This document shows, piece by piece, positions 41,757-62,031 of a stretch of 64,000 bases of DNA. A program made the translations under genes and the position numbers. Location of the stretch: the NCBI GenBank assembly GCA_036499085.1, contig DASYEK010000116.1, forward strand, positions 273-64,272, in the 5' to 3' direction. The notes beneath the pieces were generated by a model, which ran no database searches, was not told where the DNA came from, and saw nothing but the letters and a program-made list of their open reading frames with translations. The DNA comes from Herbaspirillum sp. (GTDB taxonomy: Bacteria; Pseudomonadota; Gammaproteobacteria; Burkholderiales; Burkholderiaceae_D). The first letter of the stretch is position 1. Every line of letters begins with the position of its first letter.

Positions 41757-41829
41757 AGTTTAGATGAACCACGCAATTCAGAAATCCTTAAAATGCATCC
41801 ATTAGTCCAATTCGGTAGACATCGCTTCC
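41757..41829 (-). promoter_or_regulatory. Predicted AraC-activated promoter of msrA operon
   Basis: Minus strand GGAC-taatggatgcattttaa-GGAT-N21-TAAACT, plus a third half-site GGAA 21 nt upstream. Confidence 0.65.
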
Positions 41830-41889
41830 ACGTGTAAAACAAAAAATATACATTTCCGAAACGTTGGCAATACTTAAAAGGATCAAAAC

Positions 41890-42852
41890 GTGTCAGACAA
41901 GCCTCTTTTACGAATTTCTCCTTCGGATCTGGATAGCCTGCTGACGATGCTGGACGTCAATTTCGTCCGTTTATCGGAATGCCTGGTCAGTCCCGGCTGG
42001 CAGTTGGAATTGGGTGATGTCGAAGCGCCGGGACTGCATTACAACCTTGCGGGGACCGGCCGCATGGTCGTCGGTGAAATGGTCATCGAACTCAGGCCTC
42101 ATACTCTGGTTATTCTCCCGGCGAGACAGAAATTCTATATTGAGGTCCCCTCGGACGATGCGGAAATGCCGGTGCCTGAAGTCCTGGATGGACGGGCCAT
42201 CGATTTTCCCTCCGGAGCAGTGCGCAGATATGTCGCCGGACGTTCGGATCCGCACATCATCATGATCTGTGGCTATTTCCGGGCAATGTATGGCACTTCC
42301 ATGGATTTGTTCGCCATGCTCACCATGCCGATCGTGGAGCAATTCGATGCATCCGATCATCTCGACACCAGGCTGAAACTGGCGATGACCGAACTGATCG
42401 CGCAAGAAGTCGGGGCGGGAGCGATGACGACGACGTTGCTGAAACAAGTGCTGGTGGTTCTGCTGCGGCGCTCATTGAGCAGCGCGGACCATTGGGTCGA
42501 ACGCTTTTCGATGTTCAGCAATTCGCATGTCGCTCGTGCATTCGCCGATATGGTGACGCAGCCCGGCGCTCCGCATTCCATACGAAGCCTCGCGCAGAGC
42601 GCATGCCTCAGCAGGTCGGCGTTCATGTCGCATTTCACCAGTCTTTTCGGACGCCCGCCAATGGAAGCCCTGCGCGAAATCCGCATGCGTCAAGCGGCCC
42701 TCCTGCTGGCCAACGACAGCATGCCGATCGATCAGATTGCCCGCGCGGTAGGTTATGAAAGCCGTAGCAGTTTTCTCCGGGCCTTCCGCAAAGCCTACGG
42801 TAACGATCCTTCGGACTATCGCTCCAAAGGGCGGCGCGTCCCAGAACTGTAG
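41890..42852 (+). CDS. AraC regulator with cupin sensor domain and two RclR-like Cys (AraC-1)
   Basis: LSECLVSPGW and IMICGYF cysteines; SLAQSACLSRSAF and VGYESRSSFLRAF HTHs; GTG start. Confidence 0.9.
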   Translation: MSDKPLLRISPSDLDSLLTMLDVNFVRLSECLVSPGWQLELGDVEAPGLHYNLAGTGRMVVGEMVIELRPHTLVILPARQKFYIEVPSDDAEMPVPEVLDGRAIDFPSGAVRRYVAGRSDPHIIMICGYFRAMYGTSMDLFAMLTMPIVEQFDASDHLDTRLKLAMTELIAQEVGAGAMTTTLLKQVLVVLLRRSLSSADHWVERFSMFSNSHVARAFADMVTQPGAPHSIRSLAQSACLSRSAFMSHFTSLFGRPPMEALREIRMRQAALLLANDSMPIDQIARAVGYESRSSFLRAFRKAYGNDPSDYRSKGRRVPEL

Positions 42853-42872
42853 TATTTCTGCAATCGCCGATT

Positions 42873-43832
42873 TCAATTCGCGCGCAGTCCCACCACATTG
42901 AACAGTTGTTGCCGATCGGTCCAGGCCTGCTCCACCTGCCATCCATTGGCTATCGCCAGGGCAGAAAAATCTTCAAGGCTGTATTTGCGAGAGCTTTCGG
43001 TATGGATGGTTTCACCGGCTTCGAAGTCATAGCTGAAATCATTGACGGTGACTGTTTGCGCCACCTGACTGACCAGATGCATTTCGACCGCGGATTCGAC
43101 ACTATTCCAACGGACAGCGTGCCGAAAGCCGGACACTGCGAAATCGCCGCCCAGCTCACGATTGATTCGTGTCAATAGATTGAGATTGAATCGTGCAGTG
43201 ACCTCTTGTGCATCGTCATAGGCAGCCAGCATTGTTTCCGTATCTTTTTTCAAGTCGAAACCGATGATGGCGACGCCGTCCTTGCCCACGTGTCGACGCA
43301 TGCGTTGCAGGAATGCGCCGGCCTCTGCGACGTCGAGATTGCCGATGGTGGAGCCTGGAAAGAATGCCACCCGACGCCCCTCGGGCAAAGCGGCCGGCAG
43401 TTCGAAATCGATCATGAAATCTGAAACCATCGGGTCCACCTGGAGCTTCGGAAAGCGCTCGCGAATGCGCACTACCGTCTGTTCCAGGAATTCGGCGGCG
43501 ATATCGATGGGGATATATTGCCGTGGCGTGCATAGCGCTGCAATCAGCGTTTCGGTCTTGATGCCGGCGCCGGCGCCATACTCAAGCAGCGTGGCGCCGC
43601 TGCCTGCAAAGTCGGCTATGGCGCTCGCGTTATCCAGCAGAATCGCGGATTCGGTGCGTGTCGGATAGTACTCCGGCAATTGCGTGATTGCTTCGAACAG
43701 TTCCGAACCTGCATTGTCGTACAGCCATCGGCAGGGGAGGTTTTTCCGACGATGCGAAAGTCCGTTGATTACATCGGCCAGGAAGGCATTCCGATGGTGA
43801 TTCGGGCTCATTGCCTTATAGATCATGTCCAT
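42873..43832 (-). CDS. egtD: L-histidine N-alpha-methyltransferase (hercynine synthase)
   Basis: KNLPCRWLYD..GSELFEAITQLPEYYPTRTE, EYGAGAGIKT, FFPGSTIGN, AYDD..VTARFNLN, IHTESSRKY. Confidence 0.92.
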   Translation of the reverse strand: MDMIYKAMSPNHHRNAFLADVINGLSHRRKNLPCRWLYDNAGSELFEAITQLPEYYPTRTESAILLDNASAIADFAGSGATLLEYGAGAGIKTETLIAALCTPRQYIPIDIAAEFLEQTVVRIRERFPKLQVDPMVSDFMIDFELPAALPEGRRVAFFPGSTIGNLDVAEAGAFLQRMRRHVGKDGVAIIGFDLKKDTETMLAAYDDAQEVTARFNLNLLTRINRELGGDFAVSGFRHAVRWNSVESAVEMHLVSQVAQTVTVNDFSYDFEAGETIHTESSRKYSLEDFSALAIANGWQVEQAWTDRQQLFNVVGLRAN

Positions 43833-43891
43833 TTACTTTTTTAATCATGGTTTGCGTTTGATGTTATTTCGCTTGGGGATGAGCGAAGATC

Positions 43892-43943
43892 AGCTTAAAT
43901 CAAAGTGATGATCCAAAAGTCCTTTAGAAGAGCCCATCGGTCC
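43892..43943 (-). promoter_or_regulatory. Predicted AraC-activated promoter of egtD
   Basis: Minus strand GGAC-cgatgggctcttctaaa-GGAC-N21-TAAGCT. Confidence 0.65.
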
Positions 43944-44053
43944 TATTTTGTGTTCCGCAACTGTTAATAAGTGAGCAAAAATCGTAGAGTCGCTCGGAAA
44001 TGGAAACGCTTGCCAGCCCCGAAAATGAACGACCTGACGAAAGTTTCAAAAGC

Positions 44054-45049
44054 ATGACCGGCAAACTGATTTTACGAATTGCACCTTCAGACTTGGATAA
44101 TCTGATGAGTACATTGGAAGTGAATTTCGTCAAATTGGCAGAATGCCTGGTGAGCACGGGCTGGCGATTGGTATTGCAGGGAATCGATGCGCCTGGAATC
44201 CACTACAACCTGAGTGGCGTGGGCAAAATGATCGTAGGCGATCAGCCGCCGATCGAACTGCTGCCGCACACGCTGGTCATCGTCCCGCCCGGGCACTCGG
44301 TCCGCATTGAGGTCCCGGCGCCTCAATGCCCGTCGTCATCGTTGAATACCGTGGAAAACCGCTGGCAGGCGCCTGTGCCCGGCGCCCTGCGCAGATTCCG
44401 GGCCGGCGACGGCGAACCGCACATCATGTTGATCTGCGGACACTTTCGGGCTTCCTACGGTGCATCGCTGGATCTGTTTGCGGGCTTGCGTGCGCCGATC
44501 GTCGAACAATTCGAAGCCATCGACCAACTCGATCGAAAACTGACCTCGGCGCTCGCGGAGCTAGTGGCGCAGGAGGTCGGAATGGGCGCGATGACCACCA
44601 CATTGTTGAAACAAGTTCTGGTGGCCCTGCTGCGCCGCTCCCTCGGTTCCGTCAGTTTGTGGCTCGAAAGATTTCCAATACTGAGCGACCCGCTGATTGC
44701 GCGCGCGTTCACCGATATGGTTTCGCACCCTGGAGCCCCGCATTCGGTGCAAAGCCTGGCGCAAAGCGCCTGCCTGAGCCGATCCGCATTCATGGCCCGA
44801 TTCGCCAGCCTGTTCGGTCAAACCCCGATGGCGGCGCTACGGGAACTGCGCATGCGCCAGGCGGCGATGCTATTGACCGCGAATAACCTTTCGATATTCC
44901 AGATCGCGCATAGTGTGGGTTACGCGAACCGCAGCAGTTTCCTGCGGGCTTTCCGTAAAGTGTATGGCTGCGATCCGTCGCATTATCGTAGCGGAGATCG
45001 ACCGCCCATCGATGAAAAAATCCCGCTATCGGAAGAAATGAATGAATAA
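44054..45049 (+). CDS. AraC regulator, close paralog of AraC-1 (AraC-2)
   Basis: LRIAPSDLD, LAECLVSTGW, MLICGHF, SLAQSACLSRSAF; upstream in-frame ATG at 44000 possible. Confidence 0.9.
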   Translation: MTGKLILRIAPSDLDNLMSTLEVNFVKLAECLVSTGWRLVLQGIDAPGIHYNLSGVGKMIVGDQPPIELLPHTLVIVPPGHSVRIEVPAPQCPSSSLNTVENRWQAPVPGALRRFRAGDGEPHIMLICGHFRASYGASLDLFAGLRAPIVEQFEAIDQLDRKLTSALAELVAQEVGMGAMTTTLLKQVLVALLRRSLGSVSLWLERFPILSDPLIARAFTDMVSHPGAPHSVQSLAQSACLSRSAFMARFASLFGQTPMAALRELRMRQAAMLLTANNLSIFQIAHSVGYANRSSFLRAFRKVYGCDPSHYRSGDRPPIDEKIPLSEEMNE

Positions 45050-45124
45050 TGAATAGAACGACAAGCAACCTTGAGCCATCAGGGAGATTTACCTTCAACT
45101 CAATTTCACTAATGAGAAATCATC

Positions 45125-45571
45125 ATGACCGACAAAACACTTCTAAAGAACACCATGCTGGACCTCGAAACCGAAAGGTTGGCTTATTCCGAGCGTGCTT
45201 ATGCCGATTATCTATGCCGTAGCGCACGCGACCAAAGCCAGGCAGGAGACCACGGGCAGGACTCGCAGCAGTTCGAGGATGCCGAAATAGCACAGGCGTT
45301 CGAATGTCCCATCGAAACGCATCAGGAAGCGCTCGCGAAATTACGCCATATCGATTTCGGCCCGAAGTCGGAAGTGCGGGAAGGGGCTGCCGTCCGCTTC
45401 AATGACCGCTGGTTCGTGATTGCAATCGCTACAGAAGAATTCACCTGCGACGGCATCACCTATATGGGCATATCAAGCCAGGCGCCAATCTTCGAGGCAA
45501 TGCAAGGCAAGGCCGCCGGCGATGTCTTTGAATTCAACCGCCGAAAAATCCGGGTGGAAGCGGTGGCTTGA
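45125..45571 (+). CDS. GreA/GreB-like protein
   Basis: N-terminal coiled-coil with AGD tip; C-terminal ISSQAPIFEAMQGKAAGDVFEFN matches the Gre C-terminal domain pattern. Confidence 0.6.
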   Translation: MTDKTLLKNTMLDLETERLAYSERAYADYLCRSARDQSQAGDHGQDSQQFEDAEIAQAFECPIETHQEALAKLRHIDFGPKSEVREGAAVRFNDRWFVIAIATEEFTCDGITYMGISSQAPIFEAMQGKAAGDVFEFNRRKIRVEAVA

Positions 45572-45666: not shown

Positions 45667-45718
45667 AGACTTTTAGACTCATTTTCAGGACTTGCCATCC
45701 TTTCATCTGCCTTAAACT
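45667..45718 (+). promoter_or_regulatory. Predicted AraC-activated promoter of PEP-mutase/dps/kef/flavoprotein run
   Basis: Plus strand AGAC-ttttagactcattttca-GGAC-N21-TAAACT. Confidence 0.65.
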
Positions 45719-45852
45719 ATAAATCGGTCGCGTAACCGACGTAGGCGGACGTCACCGCGTCCTTTCGTGAAACGGGCGGCGCCGGGTTCGCCAATGTGCC
45801 TCTTGCACGTTGATGCGAGTATTTCATCATCCACCGACACGACGAGGTTTCC

Positions 45853-46917
45853 ATGACCCGCACAATTTCTGAAAAACGCGCCATCTTCCGCGCCCTCCAT
45901 GAACAAGGTTGTTTCGTGCTGCCGAATCCCTGGGACGTGGGTAGCGCCCGCTATCTGCAAGGCCTGGGCTTCAAGGCCTTGGCGACAACAAGCGCGGGTT
46001 ATGCATGGTCGCAAGGCCTGCCGGACGGCGCCGCCACGCTGGAAATGGCATTGGCCCACTTGCGCGACATAGTGGCCGCAACCGATCTGCCGGTCAACGC
46101 CGATTTTGAACATGGCTTTGCCGCCGATCCCGAAGGGGTCGCGAAAAACGTCAAGCTCGCCATCGAGACCGGCATAGCGGGATTATCGATCGAGGACAGT
46201 ACCGGCGACGCCGCCAAACCTTTGTTCGCCATCGAAGAAGCAAGCGCCAGGATACGGGCTGCACGCAACGCAATCGACAGTGCTGGCGGCGACGTCCTGC
46301 TGATCGGCCGCGCGGAAAATTTCTTCATCGGAAAACCAGACCTGCAGGACACCATTGCCCGTTTGAAGGCTTATTCCGCGGCCGGCGCCGACTGCCTCTA
46401 TGCACCTGACATCGAGACGCGCGAAGACATTGCCGCAATAGTGGCCGCGGTTGCGCCGAAACCCTTCAACCTGTTGATCCGTTCGGACAACGGCCTGACC
46501 TTGCAGGACGCCGCCGATCTCGGCGTCCGCCGCATCAGCGTCGGCGCCGCGTTGGCACGCTCTGCGTGGGGCGGGTTCATGCGTGCGGCGCAAACCATTT
46601 CGCGAGGCCGTTTCGACGGTTTCGCCGATGCCGCGCCGGGCGCGCAACTGAATGCCTTCTTCCGTGTCTCAGGCGAAGAGCCATTGATGAAGCAGCCCGC
46701 GCACATTGTCGGCAAAGTCGAATATCGTGAAGGCGAAGGACCTTTGCTGGAGATCCCCTGCGGCGTTGTGGAAGTCGAAACCAATGCGGTCGATGCAATC
46801 TTCAGTTGGCCGGACGGCAAGTCCCATGGACTTGCGGCGATGCCGGTCGCCAATTTTTGCCGGTATGTCGCCGATGGAGCGATCACCGTCGCCGCGAAGC
46901 CGCCATTGCGTACTTAG
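45853..46917 (+). CDS. Isocitrate lyase/PEP mutase family protein with ~76-aa C-terminal extension
   Basis: LPNPWDVGSA, ALATTSAG, PVNADFE.G, GLSIEDS, AGADCLYAP; extension begins MKQPAHIVGKVEYREG. Confidence 0.85.
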   Translation: MTRTISEKRAIFRALHEQGCFVLPNPWDVGSARYLQGLGFKALATTSAGYAWSQGLPDGAATLEMALAHLRDIVAATDLPVNADFEHGFAADPEGVAKNVKLAIETGIAGLSIEDSTGDAAKPLFAIEEASARIRAARNAIDSAGGDVLLIGRAENFFIGKPDLQDTIARLKAYSAAGADCLYAPDIETREDIAAIVAAVAPKPFNLLIRSDNGLTLQDAADLGVRRISVGAALARSAWGGFMRAAQTISRGRFDGFADAAPGAQLNAFFRVSGEEPLMKQPAHIVGKVEYREGEGPLLEIPCGVVEVETNAVDAIFSWPDGKSHGLAAMPVANFCRYVADGAITVAAKPPLRT

Positions 46918-47022
46918 CGCGCGTATCGGCCTTGTTGCCGTCGGCATCGATTGGCGCAACGCAGAAAAGTTCGCTGGGCAACCATCGAACCTATTTCAAC
47001 CCCAACTACAAGGACAGCCATC

Positions 47023-47538
47023 GTGACCAAATCTCCTCCCAAAATTCGCCGCAAACTCCCCATGGCAACCCCCTCCGCCCTGGGCGCGGATGCGGTGCGA
47101 GACATCTCCGGCGGCCTTTCCATATTGCTGGCCGATTTTTTTGCGTTGTATCTGAAAACCAAGAATTTCCACTGGCACGTATCGGGTCCCCATTTCCGCG
47201 ACTATCATCTGATGCTGGACGAACAGGCTACCCAGATTTTTGCCGCCACCGATCCGATCGCCGAACGTACACGCAAGCTTGGCGGCACCACGCTTCGCTC
47301 CATTGGCCAGATTGCTCGCCTGCAACGCATATCGGACAACGATGCCGATTTTGTCGACGCGTCGGGCATGCTGGCGGAATTGCGCGAAGACAACCTTACG
47401 GTGGTGGCCAAGATGCGCGAAGTGCACGGATTGTGTGACGAATACAATGACGTTGCGACCGCAAGCCTGCTCGAAAACTGGATCGACGAAGCCGAGCAGC
47501 GCATCTGGTACCTGTTCGAGGCCGGCAAGAATGGTTGA
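47023..47538 (+). CDS. dps: Dps DNA-protecting ferritin
   Basis: LYLKTKNFHWHVSGPHFRDYHLMLDEQ...DPIAER ferroxidase motifs; GTG start after AAGGA. Confidence 0.93.
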   Translation: MTKSPPKIRRKLPMATPSALGADAVRDISGGLSILLADFFALYLKTKNFHWHVSGPHFRDYHLMLDEQATQIFAATDPIAERTRKLGGTTLRSIGQIARLQRISDNDADFVDASGMLAELREDNLTVVAKMREVHGLCDEYNDVATASLLENWIDEAEQRIWYLFEAGKNG

Positions 47539-47604
47539 TCGAGGCCATGCCGGGAAGACCTCCTCAACCAGGAAGCCGGCATAACGTCAATTTTCGATGA
47601 GGCC

Positions 47605-49314
47605 ATGACAGATACCGCAACGCTTGCCGTCCTGCTGCCAGTCATCTTGCTGCTGTTTCTCGCGGTGGCGACGGCTATCGCCAGCCGTATCGTCGGCTTG
47701 AGTCCCATCGTCGGCTACATCGCGCTCGGACTGGCGCTGCGGGCCGGAGGCGTCGGCTTCCTGTTCGAACAGTCGACCATTGCGCTGCTGGCGGAACTGG
47801 GCGTCATTTTCCTGCTGTTCGACATCGGGCTGCACTTTTCGCTCGCGCACGTGCGTCGGCAAGCGTCGGACATCTTTGCCTTCGGCCCGTTCCAGGTCGT
47901 GTTTGCCACCGTTGCGATCGGTCTCGCCGCGCTGGCTTTCGGCATGGACCTGCTGCCCGCCCTGCTGACAGGGGCGGTGCTGGCGTTGTCTTCGACCGCC
48001 GTGGTCGGACGCCTGATCGCCGAGCGCCACCAGCAGAACTGCCCGGTCGGACTGACCGCCACTTCCATCCTTGTATTCCAGGACGTGGCCGCGATCTTTC
48101 TCCTGATCGTCGCCGGCGCGCTGGATGGCGGCGGATCGGTCTGGATCGCCGCTTTGCAGGCACTGGGCAAAGCGGTGCTGGCCTTTGCCGTCACCGTGGC
48201 CATCGCCAGGCTGTTGATCGGACCGCTGCTGGCACTGGTAGCGCGCACCAGGAATGAAGAGGTGTTCACCGCGATGGCGCTGCTGATCGCGCTGGCGGCC
48301 GGCTGGGCGACCGGCCAGATCGGTCTTTCGCTGACCCTCGGTGCTTTCCTGGGCGGACTGGCGCTGGCGAAAACGCCTTATCGGGCCGTCATTGAATCTG
48401 AAATCAGGCCTTTCCGCGGATTGCTGCTCGGGTTTTTCTTCATTTCGATCGGCCTGTCGCTGGACGTGGCCGCCCTGGCAAGCTCGTGGCGGATCGTCAT
48501 CGGCCTCACCGTTCTGTTGCTTGCGCTCAAGATCGTCTCCAACATCCTGGCCAGCCGCGTCTTCCGCTGGTCGGTGCCGGGTTCGACGCAGCTCGGCTTC
48601 CTGCTGGCGCAGGGTTCGGAATTCGCATTCGTCATATTGAGCCTGTCCGCGGTGCGCGCCGTCATCGGGGAATCGCGCGCCTCGGTCATCATTGCCGTGG
48701 TGGCGCTGAGCATGGCGGTCACGCCCAATCTGGCCGACGCCGGCCGCAAGCTGGCCGGTCGCATGCGCATGCGCCGACAGCAGCAAAAGGCGATGATCGA
48801 AGAACTTACGCCGCAACTGGAAGCGGCGCCGGCGATCATCATCGGCATGGGGGAAATCGGCCGGACGGTGGCGGATGCCTTGATCAAATTCGAAATCGGC
48901 TATTACGCCATCGAACGCGATCCGCAACGTCTGCAAATGGCGATCGCCGATGGCTACAACGTCGTCTTCGGAGACGGTGCGGACATGCGGTTATGGGGGT
49001 CGATACAGCTTCATGCGCGCAAGCTGAGCGTTCTGACCGCTCCGGATTTCGAGGTGCTGAAGGAGACCGCTCCGATGGCGAAGATGCAATTCCCCAACCT
49101 GAAGCGCTTCGCGGTGGTAAGCGACGAAAGCGGACTTGAACGCTTCCATGGCATAGGCTTGCAGGCCATCGTGGATCGGAGCCTTCCGCGCGGAATCGAC
49201 GTCGCCATGGAAATCCTGACCGAATTGGAGATGCCGGCCGCGGCCATCGAAGAGTGGGTCAACGAGCAAACGCAATTTGCGGATTCGAACCCGCTGCTGA
49301 AGTCCGCCGCCTGA
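47605..49314 (+). CDS. CPA2 cation:proton antiporter with KTN domain (KefB/KefC-like)
   Basis: LAELGVIFLLFDIGL, ALSSTAVV, FQDVAA, LGAFLGGL, LAQGSEFAFV, KTN GMGEIG. Confidence 0.88.
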   Translation: MTDTATLAVLLPVILLLFLAVATAIASRIVGLSPIVGYIALGLALRAGGVGFLFEQSTIALLAELGVIFLLFDIGLHFSLAHVRRQASDIFAFGPFQVVFATVAIGLAALAFGMDLLPALLTGAVLALSSTAVVGRLIAERHQQNCPVGLTATSILVFQDVAAIFLLIVAGALDGGGSVWIAALQALGKAVLAFAVTVAIARLLIGPLLALVARTRNEEVFTAMALLIALAAGWATGQIGLSLTLGAFLGGLALAKTPYRAVIESEIRPFRGLLLGFFFISIGLSLDVAALASSWRIVIGLTVLLLALKIVSNILASRVFRWSVPGSTQLGFLLAQGSEFAFVILSLSAVRAVIGESRASVIIAVVALSMAVTPNLADAGRKLAGRMRMRRQQQKAMIEELTPQLEAAPAIIIGMGEIGRTVADALIKFEIGYYAIERDPQRLQMAIADGYNVVFGDGADMRLWGSIQLHARKLSVLTAPDFEVLKETAPMAKMQFPNLKRFAVVSDESGLERFHGIGLQAIVDRSLPRGIDVAMEILTELEMPAAAIEEWVNEQTQFADSNPLLKSAA

Positions 49315-49384
49315 CAGGCGGCCGGCATCCGTTCCCAGATGGAACGGAAACCAAATATCAATCACGTACCCAGGGGAAAAAAGC

Positions 49385-50806
49385 ATGACCGGTTTCAAAT
49401 CCACTTCCGATTCCACGCCCTCCGCATCGCCCCGCGTCTTCGACGCGATCCTGATCGGCACCGGCCAGGCCGCGCCCGCGCTTGCCAACCGCTTGACGGC
49501 TGCCGGCATGACGGTCGCGGTAATCGAACGCAACCTGGTGGGCGGCACCTGCGTCAACGCGGGCTGCACGCCGACCAAGGCGATGGTGGCCAGTGCCTAC
49601 GTGGCGCGCATGGCCGCCCGCGGCGCGGAATACGGCGTGATGCTGCCCGGGCCGGCGCGCATCGACATGGCCGCGATCAAGGCGCGCGCGGCCGCCATCG
49701 CCCAGGCCAGCCGCTCGGGCCTCGAAGACTGGATGAACAATATGCCCGGCTGCACGCTCATTCGCGGCCACGCGCGTTTCGAAAGCGCACGCCGAATCCG
49801 GGTCGGGGAACAATTGATCACGGCCGACAAGATATTCATCAATGTCGGCGGGCGCGCATCGATCCCCGGCATCGAGGGCCTGGATCGCATTCCGTACCTG
49901 ACCAATACCGGCATGCTGGCGCTCGACCAGGTCCCGCGCCATCTGATCGTGATCGGCGGCAGCTACATCGGGCTGGAATTTGCCCAGATGTTCCGCCGCT
50001 TCGGCGCGGAAGTGACGGTGCTCCAGAGAGGCCCGCGCCTGATTCCGCAGGAAGACGGCGAAGTCTCGGCGCAGATCAAGGCGATCCTGGAAAACGAAGG
50101 CGTCGAGATCCGGCTGAATGCGGAATGCATCCGGGTTCGCCCGCTTCCGGAAGGGGTCGCCGTCGGCGTCAACGGTTCGGCGGCCGAGCAAGAGATCGTC
50201 GGCAGCCACGTCCTGCTCGCCGCCGGCAGGCGGCCGAACACCGACGACCTGGGCCTGGACCAGGCCGGCGTGGCGACCGATGCGGCCGGCTACATCGCGG
50301 TCGACGGCCAGCTGCGCACCAGCGTCGAAGGAATCTGGGCGCTCGGCGACTGCAACGGCCGCGGCGCATTCACGCATACTTCCTACAACGATTTCGAGAT
50401 CGTTGCCGCGAACCTGCTCGACGGCGAGGCGCGCTCTGTTGCGGATCGGATTCCCGCCTATGCGCTATATATCGATCCGCCGCTGGGCCGGGTCGGGATG
50501 ACGGTGACGCAGGCGCAAAAGGCCGGCCGCACCGTCCGCGTCGGCATGCGGCCGATGACCCGCGTCGCGCGCGCCAAGGAAAAGGGCGAGGCGCAAGGGT
50601 CGATGCGGGTAGTGGTCGATGCAACCACGGATGAGATCCTGGGCGCCGCGATCCTGGGGCCTGGCGGCGACGAAGCCGTTCATATGGTGCTGGCCGCGAT
50701 GTCCGCCGGCGTGTCCTATACCGTACTGACGCGGACCGTGGCAATCCATCCTACTGTCTCGGAGTTGATACCGACCATCCTCGGCGAGCTTTCGGCGCCG
50801 CTGTGA
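49385..50806 (+). CDS. Flavoprotein disulfide reductase (RclA/MerA/LpdA superfamily; lacks MerA N-domain and C-terminal CC)
   Basis: GTGQAA, GGTCVNAGCTPTK redox CxxxxC, GGSYIGLE, GRRPNT, ALGDC, IHPTVSE. Confidence 0.88.
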   Translation: MTGFKSTSDSTPSASPRVFDAILIGTGQAAPALANRLTAAGMTVAVIERNLVGGTCVNAGCTPTKAMVASAYVARMAARGAEYGVMLPGPARIDMAAIKARAAAIAQASRSGLEDWMNNMPGCTLIRGHARFESARRIRVGEQLITADKIFINVGGRASIPGIEGLDRIPYLTNTGMLALDQVPRHLIVIGGSYIGLEFAQMFRRFGAEVTVLQRGPRLIPQEDGEVSAQIKAILENEGVEIRLNAECIRVRPLPEGVAVGVNGSAAEQEIVGSHVLLAAGRRPNTDDLGLDQAGVATDAAGYIAVDGQLRTSVEGIWALGDCNGRGAFTHTSYNDFEIVAANLLDGEARSVADRIPAYALYIDPPLGRVGMTVTQAQKAGRTVRVGMRPMTRVARAKEKGEAQGSMRVVVDATTDEILGAAILGPGGDEAVHMVLAAMSAGVSYTVLTRTVAIHPTVSELIPTILGELSAPL

Positions 50807-52895: not shown

Positions 52896-53002
52896 CAAAA
52901 CAACCGGGCAATCCTTTACCCGAATGCGCGCGCTTCAATACGATGCCAGCCGTCTTGTCGGGATCGGGATTCAGGTGCCGGCCGTGTAGATGCGCGCCTC
53001 AT

Positions 53003-53986
53003 CTACGCTTCACACCGAATGCGAAGCGTATTGCCCGGTTTCAGCCCTCGGCGGCGCCATTGCCCCGGCGTCATCCCCATCTTGTCGGTGAATACGCGCC
53101 GGAATGCAGCCACGGATCGATACCCGACCGCATCGGTCACGGCCTCGGTAGTCATGCCCGGCTTCTGCAGCTCGCTGGCGGCCAGGCTCATTCGAATATC
53201 GGCCAGCATCTCGATGGCCGACCGGCCGAACTTGTCCTGAAATTGCCGCATGAATGTGGCTCGCGACATGCTGCACAATCGAGCCAGGTCAGGCAGGTTC
53301 CAAGGCCGCGCCGGCTCGGCGAGCATGGCTGAAATGGCCGGGGCCAGTCGTGGATGGCCTGCCAGCGCCAATAAGCCCGCCGGGGCCTGTTCGGACTCGC
53401 TCGCCGCGCGTAGCGTCAGTGTGAACAGCGCCGACGTGAGCGCGTTGAGGATCGCGAATCTGCCTGGTTTATCGCCGACCGATTCTGTGCACATCAGCCC
53501 CACCAGACCGGCCAGGTGATTCGAAGCAGGCCCGCTTCCTTCTTCACCCCGACCGCCCGTGGCGCGCACCGTCAAGGTCGTGGGAAGGTAATCGCGAATC
53601 AGTCGATCATGAGGCGGTCCGATAAAAAATCGCCCGCATAACATGTCCAGCCGTTCACCTTGTCCATCGTTTTCCTTGAGCGCCCATCCTGCAGAATTTT
53701 GCCGATTATAGGTATGCCCTGGCGCCTGACCGCTGCCATCGTTCAGGACGTGCGCCGACCCGTGAGGCAACAGCACGATATCTCCGCTCAGGAGTTCCGT
53801 GGCTGTGCCCGTCTCCGGATCCTCGATAACGGCCCGGCCCTTGAGGATGACGTGGTAGGGAATCTCGTGCGCGGCGGACTGATCCCAGGTCACGCGCCAT
53901 GGCGCACCGTAGATGCAGCGGACCTCCAACTGCCCGGTGATGGTGATCATTTGCAGGAGATGGCTCAACCAGTCGACTTGGGACAT
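53003..53986 (-). CDS. AraC regulator with cupin domain, RclR-like (AraC-3)
   Basis: MSQVDWLSHLL, EVRCIYGAPW and MLCGRF cysteines, LCSMSRATF, VGYRSVAAFRRVF. Confidence 0.9.
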   Translation of the reverse strand: MSQVDWLSHLLQMITITGQLEVRCIYGAPWRVTWDQSAAHEIPYHVILKGRAVIEDPETGTATELLSGDIVLLPHGSAHVLNDGSGQAPGHTYNRQNSAGWALKENDGQGERLDMLCGRFFIGPPHDRLIRDYLPTTLTVRATGGRGEEGSGPASNHLAGLVGLMCTESVGDKPGRFAILNALTSALFTLTLRAASESEQAPAGLLALAGHPRLAPAISAMLAEPARPWNLPDLARLCSMSRATFMRQFQDKFGRSAIEMLADIRMSLAASELQKPGMTTEAVTDAVGYRSVAAFRRVFTDKMGMTPGQWRRRGLKPGNTLRIRCEA

Positions 53987-54058: not shown

Positions 54059-54910
54059 TCATTGCGATGCCCCTTTTGCGGCTGTTCGCATGGCCGATTC
54101 GCGTGCGCGCGCAATATCGTCGGCGATAGCGGCGCGGTGCGGATCTCCCTCGGGCAAGATGGCTGCCAAGCGTTCCCAGTAGGCGGACGCCTCGGCAAAA
54201 CGGCCTGCCTCGAACGCGGCCATGCCGGCCAGCTTCAGGCTGGTCGCCTCTTGTGGATCGCCAGCCAGGGCTTCGTCGGTCAGCGCCTTCAGCTTGGGCG
54301 TCCATTGCCGGCCACCCGCGAAATACAGGGCTTCCGCCCAGCGTCCCAGCAGTTGCGGCGGCCGGCCCGCCAAATTGGCGGCGCGCTCGAACGCCCGGGC
54401 CGCGTCGGCCATGCGTTCCTGCGCCGCGTAGGCGCGACCCAGCAATGACCAACCTTCGGCCGAGTCTGGTGTTGCCGCCAGTAATGCTTCCAGGCGCATG
54501 GCGACTTTCTCGACATTTTGCGCTTTGAGGCCGGCATCCTGTTGTTCCTGCATCAGTTGATCCGACGAACCCCAGTGCAGGTACAACACCAGCGCCAGCA
54601 GCGGCGTCGACAGCGCCGCGACCAGGGGAACAGTTCGCCCCAAGGGAGCGTCTGCCGGGTGCGGGGCGTCCTGCGCATCGTCCAGCAATACGCGGGCCGC
54701 CTCGTCCCGCCCGGCGTTGAACTGTTCCGCGTCAAGCGTGCCGGCGTCGCGCAGCGTTTCCAATTCGTTCAGACGTTCGCGGTAGACGTCGACGTTCAGG
54801 CTTGCACGGTCGGCGTTGAAACCCCTGCGAGGGCGGCGCAATTGGGGCAGCAGGATGAAAGCCGGAGCTGCTGCAAGAAGCAGCCCCGCGTACAACCAGA
54901 ACATGGTCAT
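54059..54910 (-). CDS. ccmI: Cytochrome c maturation protein CcmI/CycH (TPR)
   Basis: N-terminal TM, NVDVYRERLNEL, P..AEGWSLLGRAY TPR; ATGA overlap with ccmH. Confidence 0.85.
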   Translation of the reverse strand: MTMFWLYAGLLLAAAPAFILLPQLRRPRRGFNADRASLNVDVYRERLNELETLRDAGTLDAEQFNAGRDEAARVLLDDAQDAPHPADAPLGRTVPLVAALSTPLLALVLYLHWGSSDQLMQEQQDAGLKAQNVEKVAMRLEALLAATPDSAEGWSLLGRAYAAQERMADAARAFERAANLAGRPPQLLGRWAEALYFAGGRQWTPKLKALTDEALAGDPQEATSLKLAGMAAFEAGRFAEASAYWERLAAILPEGDPHRAAIADDIARARESAMRTAAKGASQ

Positions 54911-55395
54911 GTATCTGACTCCGTGGATGGGGCTGCGTCCTGCAGCAGACTGGCCAGGCGAAGCCGCTCGGCGTCGGACAATGGGCTTTCGGTTGCCGGA
55001 CGTGAGCGGCGCCGGTTCGCGACGATGGCCGCCAAGGCCGCGCCGCCGGCCAGCAACAGCAGGGCTGGGCCGAACCACAGCAGCATGGTGCGGGAGGATA
55101 GCGGCGGGTCGTAAAGGACGAAGTCGCCGTAGCGCGAGACCATGAAGTCGACGATCTGTTCGTCGCTTCGGCCTTCTACCACCATGCGCCGGACCTCGCC
55201 GCGTAAATCGTGGGCGATGGGCGAACTCGATTCCGCAATGTTCTGATTCTGGCACTTGGGACAGCGCAGTACCGAGGCCAGATCGTAATAGCGTTGACGC
55301 TGGGCGTCGTCAGGGAATTCGAGGACCTCGATGGCGGCATGGCTGGCGTTCAGCATGCCAAGGACAAGAACGAGCGCGGCGATCAGGCGTTTCAT
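54907..55395 (-). CDS. ccmH: Cytochrome c maturation protein CcmH
   Basis: LRCPKCQNQNIAES, FMVSRYGDFVLYDPP. Confidence 0.95.
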   Translation of the reverse strand: MKRLIAALVLVLGMLNASHAAIEVLEFPDDAQRQRYYDLASVLRCPKCQNQNIAESSSPIAHDLRGEVRRMVVEGRSDEQIVDFMVSRYGDFVLYDPPLSSRTMLLWFGPALLLLAGGAALAAIVANRRRSRPATESPLSDAERLRLASLLQDAAPSTESDT

Positions 55396-55931
55396 CGCGC
55401 GGCCTCGCGTAGCAGCTTGTCGTAGACCGGCGCCAGTTCTTCCCGCCAGACACGCTCGTCAATGATGCCGACGTACTTGTCGCGAATGACGCCTTTGCCA
55501 TCGATGAAGAAGGTCTCGGGGGCGCCGTACACGCCGAGGTCCAGGCCCAGTGTGCCGGCGGCGTCCTCGATGGTCAGCCGATATGGGTTGTGCAATGTGC
55601 GCAGCCAGTGCTGCGCGGCGTTGCGGTCGTCCTTGTAATCGACCCCGTAGATGACGACACCCTGGCCGGCCAGCCTGGTCAACACCGGGTGTTCCTCGCG
55701 GCAGGATGGGCACCATGTCGCCCAGACGTTGACCAGTGCAGGCCGGCCCTTCAAGTCGTCGCGAGTCAGCATGCGCGATGTTTCCTCGAGCGCCGGTAGC
55801 GCGAAGGCGGGAAACGGCTTGCCGATCAGCGCGGAGGGCAGCCGGGTGGGATCGAGGAACAGGCTGCGATATAGCACTACCGCGAGAAACAGGAACAATG
55901 CCGGCGGCAGCAGCAACAGCAATCGTTTCAT
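55392..55931 (-). CDS. ccmG: Thiol:disulfide interchange protein CcmG/DsbE
   Basis: LPSALIGKPFP, NVWATWCPSC, GVYGAPETF. Confidence 0.95.
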   Translation of the reverse strand: MKRLLLLLPPALFLFLAVVLYRSLFLDPTRLPSALIGKPFPAFALPALEETSRMLTRDDLKGRPALVNVWATWCPSCREEHPVLTRLAGQGVVIYGVDYKDDRNAAQHWLRTLHNPYRLTIEDAAGTLGLDLGVYGAPETFFIDGKGVIRDKYVGIIDERVWREELAPVYDKLLREAAR

Positions 55932-57898
55932 GGCCGCGCTCCGGCAATGCGCATGTCCGGAGCCGGCCGGGCCGCCCGGGGGCGATAGCGCCGATCGGAC
56001 GCCGCCAGCAAGCCGCCCAGGGCCATCATCAATGCGCCGAGCCAGATCCAGCGCACGAACGGTTTGATCTGCACCCGCACCGCCCAGGCGCCGTCGGCCA
56101 GCGGCTCTCCCAATGCCACGAACAGGTCGCGCGTGAAGCCGCCCTGAATGCCGGCCTCGGTGGTGGAAGTCTGCTGGACGCGATAGACGCGCTTTTCCGG
56201 GTGCAGCATGGCGACCTCGCGGCCATCGCGAATGACTCGTACACTGCCGCGATCGCTGGTGTAGTTAGGCCCCTGGCGCCGGGCTGTGCCTTCGAACACA
56301 AACCGATAGCTGCCCAGTTCCATGGCGGTGCCGGGCGCCATGCGCAGCTCCCGCTCCAGGCTGCCGGTGCTGGCCAGCACGACGCCCAAAGCGCACACGG
56401 CGAAGCCGAGGTGGCCCAGATGCATGCCCCAATAACTGCGCCCCAAGGCCGGCAGGCCCTTGCGCAGCCCTTGGTGGCGCGTCTTGTCGCGGATGTCGCG
56501 CAGGCCCGCCAGCACCATCCATGCGGCCAACAGGCAACCGGCCGCCACCGCCCAACGCGACCGCTCGTGCAGGGTAGCTGCGGCCAGCGCGACCAGCAGG
56601 CTGGTCGCCAGCACCGGTGCGAGCATGCGCGCCAGCCAGCGTGCCGGCGTGTCTTTCCAGCGCGTGAGCATGCCGACGGCAGCCGTCGTCATCAGCAGCG
56701 CCATCAGCGGCACGAACATGGCATTGAAATAAGGCGGGCCGACCGACAGCTTGGCGCCGGTCAGTGCATCGAGAATCAAGGGGTAGAGCGTGCCCAGCAG
56801 GATCATGGCCGCGGCCACCGACAACAGTAGATTGTTCACCAGCAGCAGCGTTTCGCGCGACCAGATCCCGAAGCCGGCCCGGCTCTTGACCACCGGCGCG
56901 CGCAGCGCGAATAGCGCAAGCGAGCCGCCGACCACTACCAGCAGGAACGCCAGCACAAACACGCCGCGCGTCGGATCGGTGGCGAAGGCGTGTACGGAGG
57001 TCAGCACGCCCGAGCGAACCAGGAAAGTGCCCAGCAAGCTGAGCGAGAACGCGGCGATGGCAAGCAGCACGGTCCAGCTCTTGAACACACCGCGTTTTTC
57101 GGTTGCGGCCAGGGAGTGGATCAACGCCGCCCCCACCAGCCAGGGCATGAACGATGCGTTTTCGACGGGATCCCAGAACCACCAACTGCCCCATCCCAGC
57201 TCGGAATAGGCCCACCACGACCCAAGGGCGATGCCCAGGCCGAGAAAGGCCCATGCCACGGTTGTCCAGGGGCGCGACCAGCGTGCCCAGGCAGCGTCGA
57301 GCTTGCCGTCCAGCAGGGCCGCGATGGCGAAGGCGAATGCCACCGAGAAGCCGACGTAGCCCATGTAAAGTATGGGCGGATGGACGATCAGGCCGATGTC
57401 CTGCAGCAAGGGATTGAGGTCGCGGCCATCGGCGGGGACGTTGGACAGCAAGCGGGCGAAAGGATTGGAGGTGCCGATCAGGAACAGCAGGAAACCCGTG
57501 CTGATCATGCCCATCACGGCGAGAACCCGGGCCAGCATCGCCTCCGGCAACTGGCGGGCGCCGAGCGAGACCGCGAATGTCCAGCCGGACAGTATCAACA
57601 CCCACAGCAGCAGCGAGCCTTCGTGCGAGCCCCAGACTGCGCTGAACTTGTAGTACCAGGGCAGCGCGCTGTTGGAGTTTTGCGCGACATAGGCGACCGA
57701 AAAATCATCCGTCAGGAAAGCATGGGTCAGGCACGCGAATGAAAACATCAGGAATGCAAATTGCCCCCAGGCGGCCGGCCTCGCCAACGCCATCCAGCGC
57801 CGGTCGCCGCGCCAGGCGCCGGCCAGCGGGATGCTCGCTTGCACCAGGGCGAGGCATAGCGCCAGGATCAGGGCCAGGAGTCCGAGTTCGGGGATCAT
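55928..57898 (-). CDS. ccmF: Heme lyase CcmF
   Basis: [53 protein letters not shown]. Confidence 0.97.
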
Positions 57899-58362
57899 CG
57901 AGCGGGCTCCTGTTTGACGGGCGGGAAATGGCCGGCCGCACCGGCTTGCTTCAGTGCATGCATGGCTTCGGGCGGCATGTAGTTTTCGTCGTGCTTGGCC
58001 AGGATTTCGTCGGCCTGCAGGCTGCCGTCGTCGTCGAGCCTGCCCGAGGCGACAATGCCCTGGCCCTCGCGAAACAGGTCCGGCAGGATGCCCTGGTAGC
58101 GCACGACGATGCTGCGGGCGCCGTCGGTGACGTTGAATCGCAGCATCAGCGAGTCTTGCGTGCGCTTGAGCGATCCGGACTCGACCATACCGCCGGCGCG
58201 GATGCGGGTGCCGTGCGGCGCTTCGCCGGCGGCGATCTGGCTTGGGGTGTAGAACAGGTTAATGTTTTCTTGCAGCGCGGCCAATGCCAGCGCCGAAGCA
58301 GCGCCGGCGCCGAATACCAGGGCCAGTATCCAGTACAGGCGCTTCTTGCGGGCGGGGGTCAT
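57895..58362 (-). CDS. ccmE: Heme chaperone CcmE
   Basis: [33 protein letters not shown] (heme-binding His/Tyr). Confidence 0.96.
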
Positions 58363-58538
58363 GGCGATGCCTCCCGGCGCCGGCGGCGTATCCGGTCGTT
58401 CAAGTAGCGGCGGCGCGCCAGCAGGGGTAACGCGATATTCAAGGCCATCACTACCAGGCACAAGCCATATGCGCTCCACACGTAGGCGCCATGGCCGCCC
58501 ATGGCGAGAAAATCGGCGAACGAGGCAAAGGCAATCAT
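58359..58538 (-). CDS. ccmD: Heme exporter protein CcmD
   Basis: [16 protein letters not shown] plus TM and basic tail; overlaps ccmC and ccmE by 4 nt. Confidence 0.88.
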
Positions 58539-59290
58539 GTCCGGTCCCTGAGCAGTCGAGCGATCTCGGCGTCGGCCCAGCGGCTGCCGGCCTCGCGGCG
58601 CAGCACTTCCAGGCGCATGCGCGCGAACAATACCGCCCCAAAGAAGCAATAGAAGCCCAGTACCGCCAGCAGCAACGGCAGCCACATCTGCGCCGGCATG
58701 GCGGGTTTGTGCGCGAGCGAAAAGCTGGCGGGCTGATGCAGGGTGTTCCACCATTCGACCGAATACTTGATGATGGGGATGTTGATGACGCCGATCACGG
58801 CCAGCAACGCGCAGCCGCGCGCCGCGCTGTCGCGGTTGATGATTGCCTGGCCCAATGCGATCACGCCCAGATACAGGAACAGCAGGATGAGCATGGAGGT
58901 CAGGCGCGCATCCCATACCCAATAGGCGCCCCAGGTGGGCTTGCCCCAGATCGAGCCGGAGGTCAGCGCGATGACCGTCATCCAGGCGCCGATCGGCGCG
59001 GCCTGCTTCAGGGCGATGTCGGCCAGCTTCATTTTCCAGATCAGGGAAATCATGCCGGCAGCAGCGAGCATGACGTAAATGGATTGCGCCAGCAGCGCCG
59101 CGGGCACGTGGATATAGATGATGCGGAAGCTGTCGCCCTGCTGGTAGTCCGGCGGCGCGAATGCCAGGCCCCATGCCAGGCCGACTGCAAGCAGCAGCGC
59201 GCTGGCGGCGGCCAGCCAGGGCAGGCACTTGCCGCTCATGTCGTGGAACCATTTGGGCGAACCCCATTTATGTAACCAGATCCAGTTCAT
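58535..59290 (-). CDS. ccmC: Heme exporter protein CcmC
   Basis: [26 protein letters not shown] domain, WWNTLHQ. Confidence 0.96.
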
Positions 59291-59336
59291 TCAAGTCGCT
59301 CGCAAGGGTTAGTCGGGCCTGCGCCGTGGATGCGTG

Positions 59337-60008
59337 TCATTCGGCGACGCTGATGGACAGCCCCGCGGCAACGGCAAACGGCGTCAGGGTGATTGCCAGC
59401 ACGGCGAGGCAGGCCAGCCACAGCAGATGCCCCGCGACCGGCAGATTCTGCAAGGCGGCCTGCAGGGCGCCGCTGCCCAGGATCAGCACCGGGATATACA
59501 GCGGCAGAACCAGCAAGGCCAGTAATAGGCCGCCGCGCCGCAAACCGACCGTGAGTGCCGCGCCGACGGCCCCCAGCAGGCTGAGCACCGGCGTGCCCAG
59601 CAGCAGCGACAGCAACAATGTCGGGAGGCAATGCGCCGGCAGGCCAAGCATCAGGGCCAGGAACGGGGCCAGCACAACCAGCCCAAGGCCGCTGCAAAGC
59701 CAGTATGCCGCTACCTTGGCCAATGCCAGCACCGTCAGCGAGTGCGACGAAAGCACCCATTGTTCCAGCGAGCCGTCCTCGAAATCGGTACGGAACAGGC
59801 CATCCAGCGAGAGCAACACGGCCAACAGCGCCGCGACCCATAGCAAGCCGGGGGCGACATTTTGCAGAATCAGCGATTGCGGTCCCAGCGCCAGCGGAAA
59901 CAGCGCGACGACTACGGAGAAGAACACCAAGGGATTGGCAAGGTCTGCGGGACGACGGCATAACAGGCGTAGCTCTTTATTGAACAGGGAGACAAAGGTC
60001 ATGCTCAC
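59337..60008 (-). CDS. ccmB: Heme exporter protein CcmB
   Basis: [32 protein letters not shown]; GTG start. Confidence 0.95.
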
Positions 60009-60694
60009 GGGGCGTACTGTCCCAGATCAAGGTCGGCGTAGGTTTGCGCTCGCCGGGTCAGCTCATGATGCGTGGTCAGCGCCACCGTGCCGCCGCGCTC
60101 GCAATGCATTGCCAGGTGCGATTCCAGTTGCGCTATGCCGGCAGCGTCCAGTGCCGTGAACGGCTCATCCAGCAACCACAGCGCGGGCGCATCGGGCAGG
60201 TACAGGCGTGCCAGCGCGATGCGGCGCTGCTGCCCGGCCGACAGCGCATGGCATGGCGTATCCTCGAAGCCGCGCAAGCCGACCGCGGCCAGGGCCTGCC
60301 CGATTTCGGCGGTTGCGCCGCGCCCGTGCAAGGCTCCCAGCCAGGCCAGGTTTTCCGTGGCGGTCAACAGCGCCTTGACGCCGGCGGCATGGCCTATCCA
60401 CAGCAGCCGGGAAGCCAGGGCGCCGCGCTGCGAGGCGAGATCCCGGCCGAACAAGCTGACATGGCCGGCGGCCGGGCGGGCCAGCCCGCACAGCAGGCGC
60501 AGCAGGCTGCTTTTGCCGCTGCCATTGGGGCCGCGGATGCGCAACATGGTGCCGGCATGCAGCCGAAAGCTCACGCTCGCGAATAGCTGGCGTTGGTCGC
60601 GTTCGCAGCCGAGAGCGACTGCGTCGAGCACGGGACCGGCGGCGTCCGCGCCGGCATCCTGGAAGCCGCGAAATCTGTGCATGGCGTACCGCAT
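60005..60694 (-). CDS. ccmA: Heme ABC exporter ATPase CcmA
   Basis: [36 protein letters not shown]; start codon uncertain. Confidence 0.95.
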
Positions 60695-60719
60695 CTACAG
60701 CCTGGCGTCCATGCCGCGC

Positions 60720-61298
60720 TTATCGCTTCAGGATCGGATAGCCGTCGGTGTAAATCCAGTCCGATGCTTGCGCCGGCACGTGGCAGGACTGACAGTCCTT
60801 CTTGAAGTCCGTGGACGTTGTCTTTTTGGAGTCGGTCGCGTCGAACCAGGACCAACCCCAACCGTCGCCCCAAAGCTTGTTCTTTGGAAAGCGGCCGACG
60901 TCATCCTTCACCATGACAAACCAGCCGGCGAGAGTGTCGGCACTGCTTACGGTTCCGGTGGTCATGGGTTTGGTAGCGGCCTTGAACACTTCCTTCACCA
61001 GAACGGTGCCATCGGGAAAGTGCCCGGTCTTGCGGTATGCGGCGATCGTTCCGGGAGATGCGTAGACAACGTGCATCTGTTTTGAGCCCGGGCCTTTGTC
61101 ATCTGCCACGGCCCAGGTTCCCAGCATCTGATAAGTGGTCCGATAGTCCGCGGGAACGCGCATATTTCCCTGGTTGTCGACCGCGGCCGCGGTCTTTGGG
61201 CCGAACTGCGAGCGTGTGTTCGTCTGCCCGAAGGCAGCGACGTGGACCATCATGGATAATCCTACCAGGGCGACGCCCAAGGCACTTATGATTCTCAT
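60720..61298 (-). CDS. Cytochrome P460 family protein B (divergent)
   Basis: Signal peptide, P.DYR..Y, HVVY, GHFPDGTVLVKE, VMVKD, GWGW, C-terminal CQSCH, DWIY. Confidence 0.85.
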   Translation of the reverse strand: MRIISALGVALVGLSMMVHVAAFGQTNTRSQFGPKTAAAVDNQGNMRVPADYRTTYQMLGTWAVADDKGPGSKQMHVVYASPGTIAAYRKTGHFPDGTVLVKEVFKAATKPMTTGTVSSADTLAGWFVMVKDDVGRFPKNKLWGDGWGWSWFDATDSKKTTSTDFKKDCQSCHVPAQASDWIYTDGYPILKR

Positions 61299-61345
61299 GG
61301 CACTGTTTCCTTGTGTTGGTGAATCGGCGGCATTCATCGACGATT

Positions 61346-61942
61346 TCAGTCGTCCAGCAATGGATAGAACTGGGTCCAGACATCGTCTTTCTTGGCGTTC
61401 GCCCGGTGGCAGAACGCGCATTCCTCATTGGGTTTCACCTTCGCGGTCGCTGCCTTCGGTTCGAAGTGGTTGAAGTTGTAGTAGCCCCATCCCCCGGTGG
61501 CGACGTAACGCTTGGAATCCTTGACGGTCACGTCGGCGCCGTTAAACTTCCCGGGAAAGTAGCCGCGCCCGGATGCCTCGGTGCGCGATCCGTCCGGGTT
61601 CTGGGCCGGAAGCAGCAGTTGCAATTCCTTGAAGAAGATCGTTCCCTCCGGGAATTCGCCGGTCTTCTTGTAAATCGCATACGAGCCCGGCTCGATGTAG
61701 ACGTTGTGGAATTCAGGGAAATTGGCCTTGCCGCCGTTGAGCGCGTTAGGCGTGAGCGGTGAGCCGACGTATACCCACTCATGAAAATTCTTCGGCAGGA
61801 TCAGGTCGCCTGATTTCGTATATTCGGGGAGATAGCGCTTTCTCGCTTGCGTGCCCCCGTCGCTGGACGACGACTGGGCGAATGTGGTTGTTATGACAAG
61901 CGCGCTGAGACCCGCAGCAGCAATCAGTAAGGGAATACGCAT
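61346..61942 (-). CDS. Cytochrome P460 family protein A (Nitrosomonas CytL-like)
   Basis: GDLILPKNFHEWVYVG..TPNALNGGKA.F, KKTGEFPEGTIFFKE, SGRGYF, VKDSKR, CAFCH, VWTQFYPLL; GGAGAAAAGG RBS. Confidence 0.9.
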   Translation of the reverse strand: MRIPLLIAAAGLSALVITTTFAQSSSSDGGTQARKRYLPEYTKSGDLILPKNFHEWVYVGSPLTPNALNGGKANFPEFHNVYIEPGSYAIYKKTGEFPEGTIFFKELQLLLPAQNPDGSRTEASGRGYFPGKFNGADVTVKDSKRYVATGGWGYYNFNHFEPKAATAKVKPNEECAFCHRANAKKDDVWTQFYPLLDD

Positions 61943-61979
61943 ACCTTTTCTCCTTCTCTCCACGAATAGTTGAGCGCTC

Positions 61980-62031
61980 ATCCTATCTTTGTCGACGGTT
62001 CCAATGGTCTCGAAATTGTTCCAATTCGTCC
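61980..62031 (-). promoter_or_regulatory. Predicted AraC-activated promoter of the P460-ccm operon
   Basis: Minus strand GGAC-gaattggaacaatttcg-AGAC-N21-TAGGAT. Confidence 0.65.

Follow-up and report, generated by a model that had tools for sequence, protein, structure and literature searches.

Is a single regulatory site shared by four promoters of one bacterial island, and if so which protein reads it? The question is raised by a 64-kb stretch of a Herbaspirillum sp. genome (C116:273-64272 of a 4.0-Mb assembly in 144 contigs, 93.6% complete; G000), hereafter the window, in which the pattern RGAC-N17-RGAY-N21-TANNNT stands upstream of msrA, egtD, a gene for a phosphoenolpyruvate (PEP) mutase-like protein and the cytochrome gene P460A. 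With a probability of roughly 0.7, the motif is the operator plus promoter of a widespread clade of RclR-like AraC proteins, two of which, AraC-1 and AraC-2, are encoded in the window and are predicted from sequence comparisons to control a regulon by thiol-switch class II activation. This predicted regulon is well supported for three of the promoters and plausible for the fourth.

The shared motif and its conservation

The sites and the AraC genes of the window are as follows.

Site 1, 41757..41808 (-): two GGAC/GGAT units 21 bp apart and the hexamer TAAACT; 133 nt 5' of the msrA ATG, with the AraC-1 start 81 bp away.
Site 2, 43892..43943 (-): operator and TAAGCT; 59 nt 5' of the egtD ATG, divergent from AraC-2.
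Site 3, 45667..45718 (+): operator and TAAACT; 134 nt 5' of the PEP-mutase-like gene.
Site 4 (subtype D), 61980..62031 (-): operator and TAGGAT; 37 nt 5' of the P460A ATG (61942).
Site 5, 39895..39926 (+): operator only, inside the 5' end of the Ferritin_2 open reading frame (ORF) and antisense to it.
AraC-1, 41890..42852 (+): Cupin_6 and HTH_18 domains, RclR-like, with Cys31 and Cys127.
AraC-2, 44054..45049 (+): paralogue of AraC-1, about 60% identical and of the same architecture.
AraC-3, 53003..53986 (-): Cupin_6 AraC protein, last gene after ccmI (72-bp gap); a terminator-like hairpin lies at 52904-52923.

An earlier note on this DNA had described the four promoter sites, and all four read exactly as claimed there in sequence, spacing and strand. 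Exactly four matches to the pattern were present within the window against 0.05 expected from 100 shuffles. The pattern had been designed on these sites, which made the shuffle test post hoc, and independent tests were therefore run. In a spacing grid within the window, four matches were obtained only at 17/21 while every other spacing gave 0-1, and the whole genome contained five matches, four of which were these sites. A scoring matrix trained solely on 31 non-redundant foreign sites gave 45.9, 32.1, 30.6 and 30.3 bits for sites 1, 4, 3 and 2, respectively, compared with 15.4 bits for the next best genome position and a shuffled maximum of 14.6 bits. The four promoter regions were dissimilar outside the operator and the -10 hexamer, which indicates a shared site rather than a copied cassette.

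More than 1,800 proteins were recovered at E <= 1e-40 in a first protein search. Five loci found with AraC-1 contained six exact pattern matches in about 52 kb. A profile from 30 homologues yielded 80 foreign loci with AraC-1 homologues, 514 kb in all, from taxa that include Burkholderiales, Bradyrhizobium, Rhizobium, Steroidobacteraceae, Woeseia, Gemmataceae and others. The fixed pattern matched 51 times in 44 of the 80 foreign loci while other spacings of the same boxes matched 0-4 times, and the hexamer distance was equally narrow with 51 matches at N21, 4 at N22 and 0-1 elsewhere. Distances between exact GGAC pairs peaked at 21 bp (81 versus 22.7 expected), 8 bp (50 versus 8.6) and 13 bp (46 versus 10.7), so the unit is taken to be GGAC-N4-GGAC/GGAY repeated at 21 bp. 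The peak at 8 bp also bears out the extra boxes at +8/+9 that the earlier note had pointed out. With an operator-only matrix, 61 of the 80 loci contained a site exceeding 17 bits.

These counts agree with the proposal that the motif is an AraC-type direct repeat with a 21-bp period at a fixed distance from a -10-like hexamer, and together with the foreign-trained matrix they tie it to the family of AraC-1 and AraC-2 across many taxa. By the genome, spacing, foreign-locus and matrix tests the motif is clearly not as frequent in random intergenic DNA, and it is predicted to be a genuine conserved operator-type site. No published description of it was found in text searches covering RclR binding sites, Cupin_6 AraC proteins, and AraC regulators in connection with msrA and hypochlorite or with P460.

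Counterparts of the individual sites were found at equivalent genes elsewhere. Near-identical copies of site 1 were located upstream of msrA in L009 and L011, sites similar to site 2 occurred in L013 and at L009 7488 with egtD also under the motif in L020, and PEP-mutase-like homologues in L017, L052 and L055 were positioned under the motif or closely after it, in parallel to site 3. Genes directly behind foreign motif copies included msrA (3 loci, one in a Gemmataceae metagenome-assembled genome), PEP-mutase-like genes (3), Kef (2), P460 (2), egtD (1) and the AraC-family regulator gene itself (2). A 180-aa CMD/AhpD-like gene next to the regulator occupied this position in 15 Paraburkholderia/Caballeronia loci, and Ogt (4), LysR regulators (3), Zn-dependent dehydrogenases (2), RbsD/FucU (2) and DUF417 of the RclC family (1; L028) were also represented. 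Within 3 kb of the 80 regulator genes were PEP-mutase-like genes in 19 loci, P460B in 8, P460A in 5, msrA in 5, egtD in 4 and ccmH in 2. The genes grouped together in the earlier note, msrA, egtD, the PEP-mutase-like gene, Kef and P460, therefore recur elsewhere as motif-associated targets.

Site 5 scored 29.1 bits with the operator-only matrix, the second best value in the genome (background maximum 16.5-19.9 bits), and has a counterpart at L009 2824.

Regulators and promoter geometry

AraC-1 and AraC-2 were the only members of their family in the genome. Behind an N-terminal Cupin_6 sensor, their C-terminal pair of helix-turn-helix motifs matched HTH_18 in Pfam with 74 and 70 bits, respectively (cut-off 33.6). 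For both, the best NCBIfam match was RclR (NF040475) at 74.7 bits for AraC-1 and 80.8 bits for AraC-2. Matches to solved structures were confined to the helix-turn-helix (HTH) domain. The AraC-1 residues C31 and C127 align with Cys21 and Cys89 of RclR, are invariant in 30 family members and are kept in AraC-2 and AraC-3. In Escherichia coli, a disulfide between Cys21 and Cys89 activates RclR (PMC7464077). AraC-1 and AraC-2 have an identical helix 6 in their DNA-binding domains.

The genomic positions of the regulators differed between the two types. AraC-1 orthologues were divergent from msrA in L005/L011 and L009 while AraC-2-like genes adjoined Kef or egtD in L013 and L020, which agrees with a possible difference in promoter preference between the paralogues. 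In a closely related island of an uncultured betaproteobacterium (L009 5997-6393), the first 190 codons and the promoter of AraC-1 were deleted; this island keeps the msrA and egtD operators, and another family member is present elsewhere on that contig (L017).

E. coli RclR activates rclABC (PMC9600549), and RclR of Pseudomonas aeruginosa (PA14_07340) activates the adjacent AhpD-like gene rclX/rcsA (PMC7950407). The regulators described here share with E. coli RclR (YkgD) a Cupin_6 domain followed by an AraC HTH, both redox cysteines and a position divergent from a target. Their targets overlap as well, through the RclA-like flavoprotein of this genome and through DUF417/RclC, which lies under the motif in L028. 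An AGAC-N4-AGAC unit is present in the E. coli rclA promoter (L091 3580-3620), although the -10-like TATAGT there follows the +21 position by 32 nt rather than 21, one helical turn further. Identity to E. coli RclR is 23-28% with scores far below the equivalog cut-off, and the predicted regulon is much wider here (MsrAB, EgtD, Dps, Kef and P460-ccm). A published RclR operator was not found in a literature search that did not extend to Parker 2013 or Nontaleerak 2020. The regulator-target pair RclR-rclX of P. aeruginosa has the same form, compared by pairing alone, as the 15 Paraburkholderia/Caballeronia loci mentioned above.

XylS at Pm, RhaS, MelR and AraC at araI1-I2 bind paired direct repeats spaced at about 21 bp, the proximal one overlapping -35. 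One monomer reads each repeat with both of its HTH motifs, as summarised for Rob (PMC9178005). The sites studied here are like those of XylS, RhaS, MelR and AraC in the direct repeats at about 21 bp and in the proximal repeat overlapping -35, and differ in their box (GGAC-N4/5-GG), in a Cupin_6 sensor with a cysteine pair and, presumably, in responding to an oxidant instead of a sugar or aromatic ligand.

At the sites, two like units stand in direct orientation about 21 bp apart with the proximal one at a fixed distance from the hexamer, and a consensus sigma-70 promoter was not called at any of the four. With a start about 7 nt after TANNNT, the proximal RGAY would span -37 to -34 and the distal RGAC -58 to -55, and the proximal unit would thus cover position -35, where the promoter lacks a good -35 box. 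Class II activation is proposed because of the direct repeats, the proximal unit at -35, the fixed distance to -10 and the missing sigma-70 consensus. Each operator consists of two direct-repeat units reading GGAC-N4/5-GG(A)y, and a regulator dimer, with one monomer per unit, would recruit RNA polymerase as described for XylS, RhaS and MelR. Oxidants may join the cupin cysteines C31 and C127 and so render the regulator active, upon which AraC-1 and AraC-2 would switch on msrA-trx-msrB, egtD and the run of genes for the PEP-mutase-like protein, Dps, Kef and the RclA-like flavoprotein. The P460-ccm operon would probably be switched on too, by cross-recognition. We infer binding, activation over repression, the transcription starts, the oxidant signal and the pairing of each paralogue with its promoters from these features. 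Control by an AraC-type class II activator that acts on direct repeats is of a conventional kind.

Several observations weigh against this assignment. An operator above 17 bits was lacking in 19 of the 80 foreign loci, and the motif was not intact at two plasmid-borne homologues, those of Sinorhizobium (46% identity) and Comamonadaceae OS-4 (52%). The latter (plasmid pOS401, L124 4440-5000) is annotated as 'RhaR', diverges from msrB-msrA-...-grxC and has gshB and rclA_2 nearby; the spacer contains only a degenerate operator copy (GGACGATAGAGCAC…) in which the proximal GGAC is absent. Site 5 has no -10 hexamer at +21 (TAGGAT is at +40) and so no promoter geometry; roles as a roadblock, an antisense promoter or a decoy are conceivable. 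The RclR scores of AraC-1 and AraC-2 were far below the NF040475 cut-off of 400, with 23% identity to E. coli RclR, and the inducing signal may therefore differ; by sequence the two proteins are RclR-like and not RclR. Helix 3 read …FMSHF in AraC-1 and its closest orthologues and …FMARF in AraC-2 and most of the family. With helix 6 the same and helix 3 different, the paralogues should share core boxes and may prefer different promoters. Finally, the type of operator found at site 4, subtype D (GGACGA-N4/5-GAAC-N6/8-GAGACCA), divergently adjoins the gene for another Cupin_6 AraC protein, AraC-D, in Allopusillimonas (G325), Cupriavidus pampae (L028) and G040 (L003).

The P460 promoter and alternative readings

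The earlier note had assigned all four sites to AraC-1 and/or AraC-2. This stands for sites 1-3, which resemble operators beside the orthologues of these regulators. For site 4, however, the orthologous sites pair with AraC-D, yet the sequence fits the general matrix. The best-surviving alternative is that AraC-1 and AraC-2 control sites 1-3 while site 4 is the operator of an AraC-D lost from this genome, with P460-ccm silent, constitutive or otherwise controlled. We regard this as unlikely. Besides the pairing with AraC-D in three genomes, subtype D is conserved upstream of P460A genes that are 84-87% identical in Allopusillimonas, an uncultured betaproteobacterium and Herminiimonas aquatilis (L098, L099 and L100). 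Among themselves the AraC-D members share 66-79% identity, against 30-37% with AraC-1/2, and those next to P460A or DUF417 (G325, L028 and L003) have the same operator geometry and core boxes as site 4 and are the cognate neighbours of its subtype. No AraC-D gene was found in the present assembly (93.6% complete), in which the best match was AraC-2 at 37%. Nucleotide synteny with the Allopusillimonas P460 island (L114, G325; 79% identity) ends at about 62043, 12 bp past 62031, where site 4 has its distal edge.

Beyond the end of synteny, a DUF1810 gene (62294-62764, -) is in place of the divergent AraC-D gene, and a LysR gene is also there. A 187-aa plus-strand ORF at 62234-62797 is spurious.

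Since subtype D pairs with AraC-D and AraC-D is absent here, control of P460 by AraC-1/2 depends on cross-recognition. Scored with a matrix from which subtype-D sites had been left out, site 4 reached 25.5 bits in full and 22.9 bits for the operator, well above the genome background of about 15 bits and above the orthologous G325 site at 17.7 bits. P460 genes were also found directly behind general-type operators beside AraC-1-family genes (L029, L034, L040, L043 and L086), and the recognition helices of AraC-D (SRSAF… and SRSSF…) resemble those of AraC-1/2. H. aquatilis AraC-D likewise does not adjoin P460A, and an AraC-D copy elsewhere is possible given the completeness of the assembly. These points speak against a lost AraC-D as the reader of site 4, and co-regulation of P460 by AraC-1/2 through cross-recognition is plausible on this comparative evidence.

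The regulators might instead be mainly repressors, or dual, with the sites marking derepressed promoters. Operators lying 81-110 bp 5' of the divergent regulator genes do leave room for autoregulation, and for site 5, inside a coding region, no effect other than interference is conceivable. The constant 21-nt spacing to the -10 hexamer (51 matches versus 4 at N22) together with the missing -35 consensus is, however, the signature of activator-dependent promoters, and the characterised relatives in E. coli and P. aeruginosa are activators (PMC9600549, PMC7950407), which makes this explanation improbable.

It is very improbable that site 4 is bound by AraC-3 in a positive feedback loop on the P460-ccm operon. 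Its gene is at the operon end, after a 72-bp gap and ahead of the terminator-like hairpin, and it encodes a Cupin_6 AraC protein with both cysteines that is the closest of the three to RclR (135.2 bits on the NF040475 model). Against this, AraC-3 is only 24% identical to AraC-1 and both recognition helices differ (SRATFMRQF and VAAFRRVF). A GGAC-type operator was not found at the loci of its orthologues (L103-L106; L027, maximum 17.4 bits) or at its paralogue (L093), versus 61 of 80 AraC-1-family loci. AraC-3 is thus probably not the protein that binds these sites. The paralogue just mentioned is a second AraC-3-type gene on contig C28.

Chance, a duplicated promoter cassette or an alternative sigma-factor promoter can be dismissed almost entirely: the pattern was drawn up with the sites already in view and GGAAC in site 4 superficially recalls extracytoplasmic function (ECF) -35 boxes, but chance was rejected on the genome count, the cross-species enrichment and the foreign-trained matrix, a copied cassette on promoter regions that share the boxes alone, and an ECF or other sigma -35/-10 pair on a 21-nt gap from GGAC to the hexamer that is too long and on a motif that travels with an AraC gene and not a sigma factor.

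Predicted regulon content and island genes

The genes behind and around the sites are listed below.

msrA, 41096-41623 (-): likely operon behind site 1 with the next two genes (Pfam).
Thioredoxin-like gene, 40593-41162 (-): member of this likely operon.
msrB, 40054-40503 (-): member of this likely operon.
Ferritin_2, 39192-39953 (-): same strand, downstream of msrB.
Cytochrome c, 38765-39382 (-): same strand, downstream of msrB.
Zn-dependent alcohol dehydrogenase (Zn-ADH), 37788-38705 (-): same strand, downstream of msrB.
egtD, 42873..43832 (-): histidine-specific methyltransferase (Pfam).
148-aa ORF, 45125..45571 (+): follows AraC-2; no Pfam match.
45853..50806 (+): closely spaced genes behind site 3 for the PEP-mutase-like protein, a Dps-type ferritin, a Kef-type K+/H+ exchanger and an RclA-like flavin adenine dinucleotide (FAD) oxidoreductase.
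54059..61942 (-): P460A, P460B and System I ccm genes in close succession behind site 4; the ccm set comprises an ABC ATPase, CcmC, CcmE, a 656-aa ORF at the CcmF position (by position only), a redoxin, CcmH and a TPR CcmI.

The predicted content of the regulon brings classical oxidant-repair genes together with cytochrome P460, a dedicated Ccm system and EgtD, and it is moderately interesting mainly for P460 with its own ccm set and for EgtD. For a large uncharacterised clade, the motif offers a precise operator model of GGAC-N4/5-GG units at 21 bp with the -10 hexamer 21 nt after the proximal GGAC. A wider reading, which we put forward tentatively and with more doubt than conviction, is that a previously undescribed RclR-like clade uses this one operator in a thiol-switch regulon that has spread horizontally across Proteobacteria and reaches Planctomycetota, co-inducing methionine repair, hercynine/ergothioneine synthesis, Dps, Kef, an RclA-like reductase and P460 with its own haem maturation. 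If so, P460 cytochromes would not only act in nitrogen metabolism but also help to defend the cell from reactive chlorine, chloramine or nitrogen oxidants. The role of P460 cytochromes in non-nitrifiers and the targets of RclR-type sensors outside enterobacteria become approachable in this way.

The G+C content was 52-55% at 40-46 kb compared with 61-66% in most of the remaining window, and an AraC-1 orthologue was present in one of 24 congeners sampled, both of which fit an acquired island. Order-level genome sampling for relatives, with 7 candidates scored per genome, gave one match in 300 genomes. The Zn-ADH gene (37788-38705) is 86% identical to the gene directly behind a motif copy in a Steroidobacteraceae metagenome-assembled genome (L020), and a value this high between different orders suggests that genes of the regulon have recently spread horizontally. 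A 53% homologue of the 148-aa ORF follows the AraC gene in L017, and this ORF may therefore be a conserved partner gene.

A hairpin with a 7-bp stem (45723-45740) starts 5 nt after the hexamer of site 3, at the predicted 5' end of the 134-nt leader, and the msrA leader is equally long at 133 nt. A search of these long leaders for known RNA elements gave no Rfam match. An hrcA mutant of Paraburkholderia edwinii under phenazine stress upregulates a cytochrome P460 family protein, alpha/beta hydrolases, an NADP oxidoreductase and an AraC regulator (bioRxiv 10.64898/2026.10.29.762636), a gene set that resembles that of the island by gene content alone.

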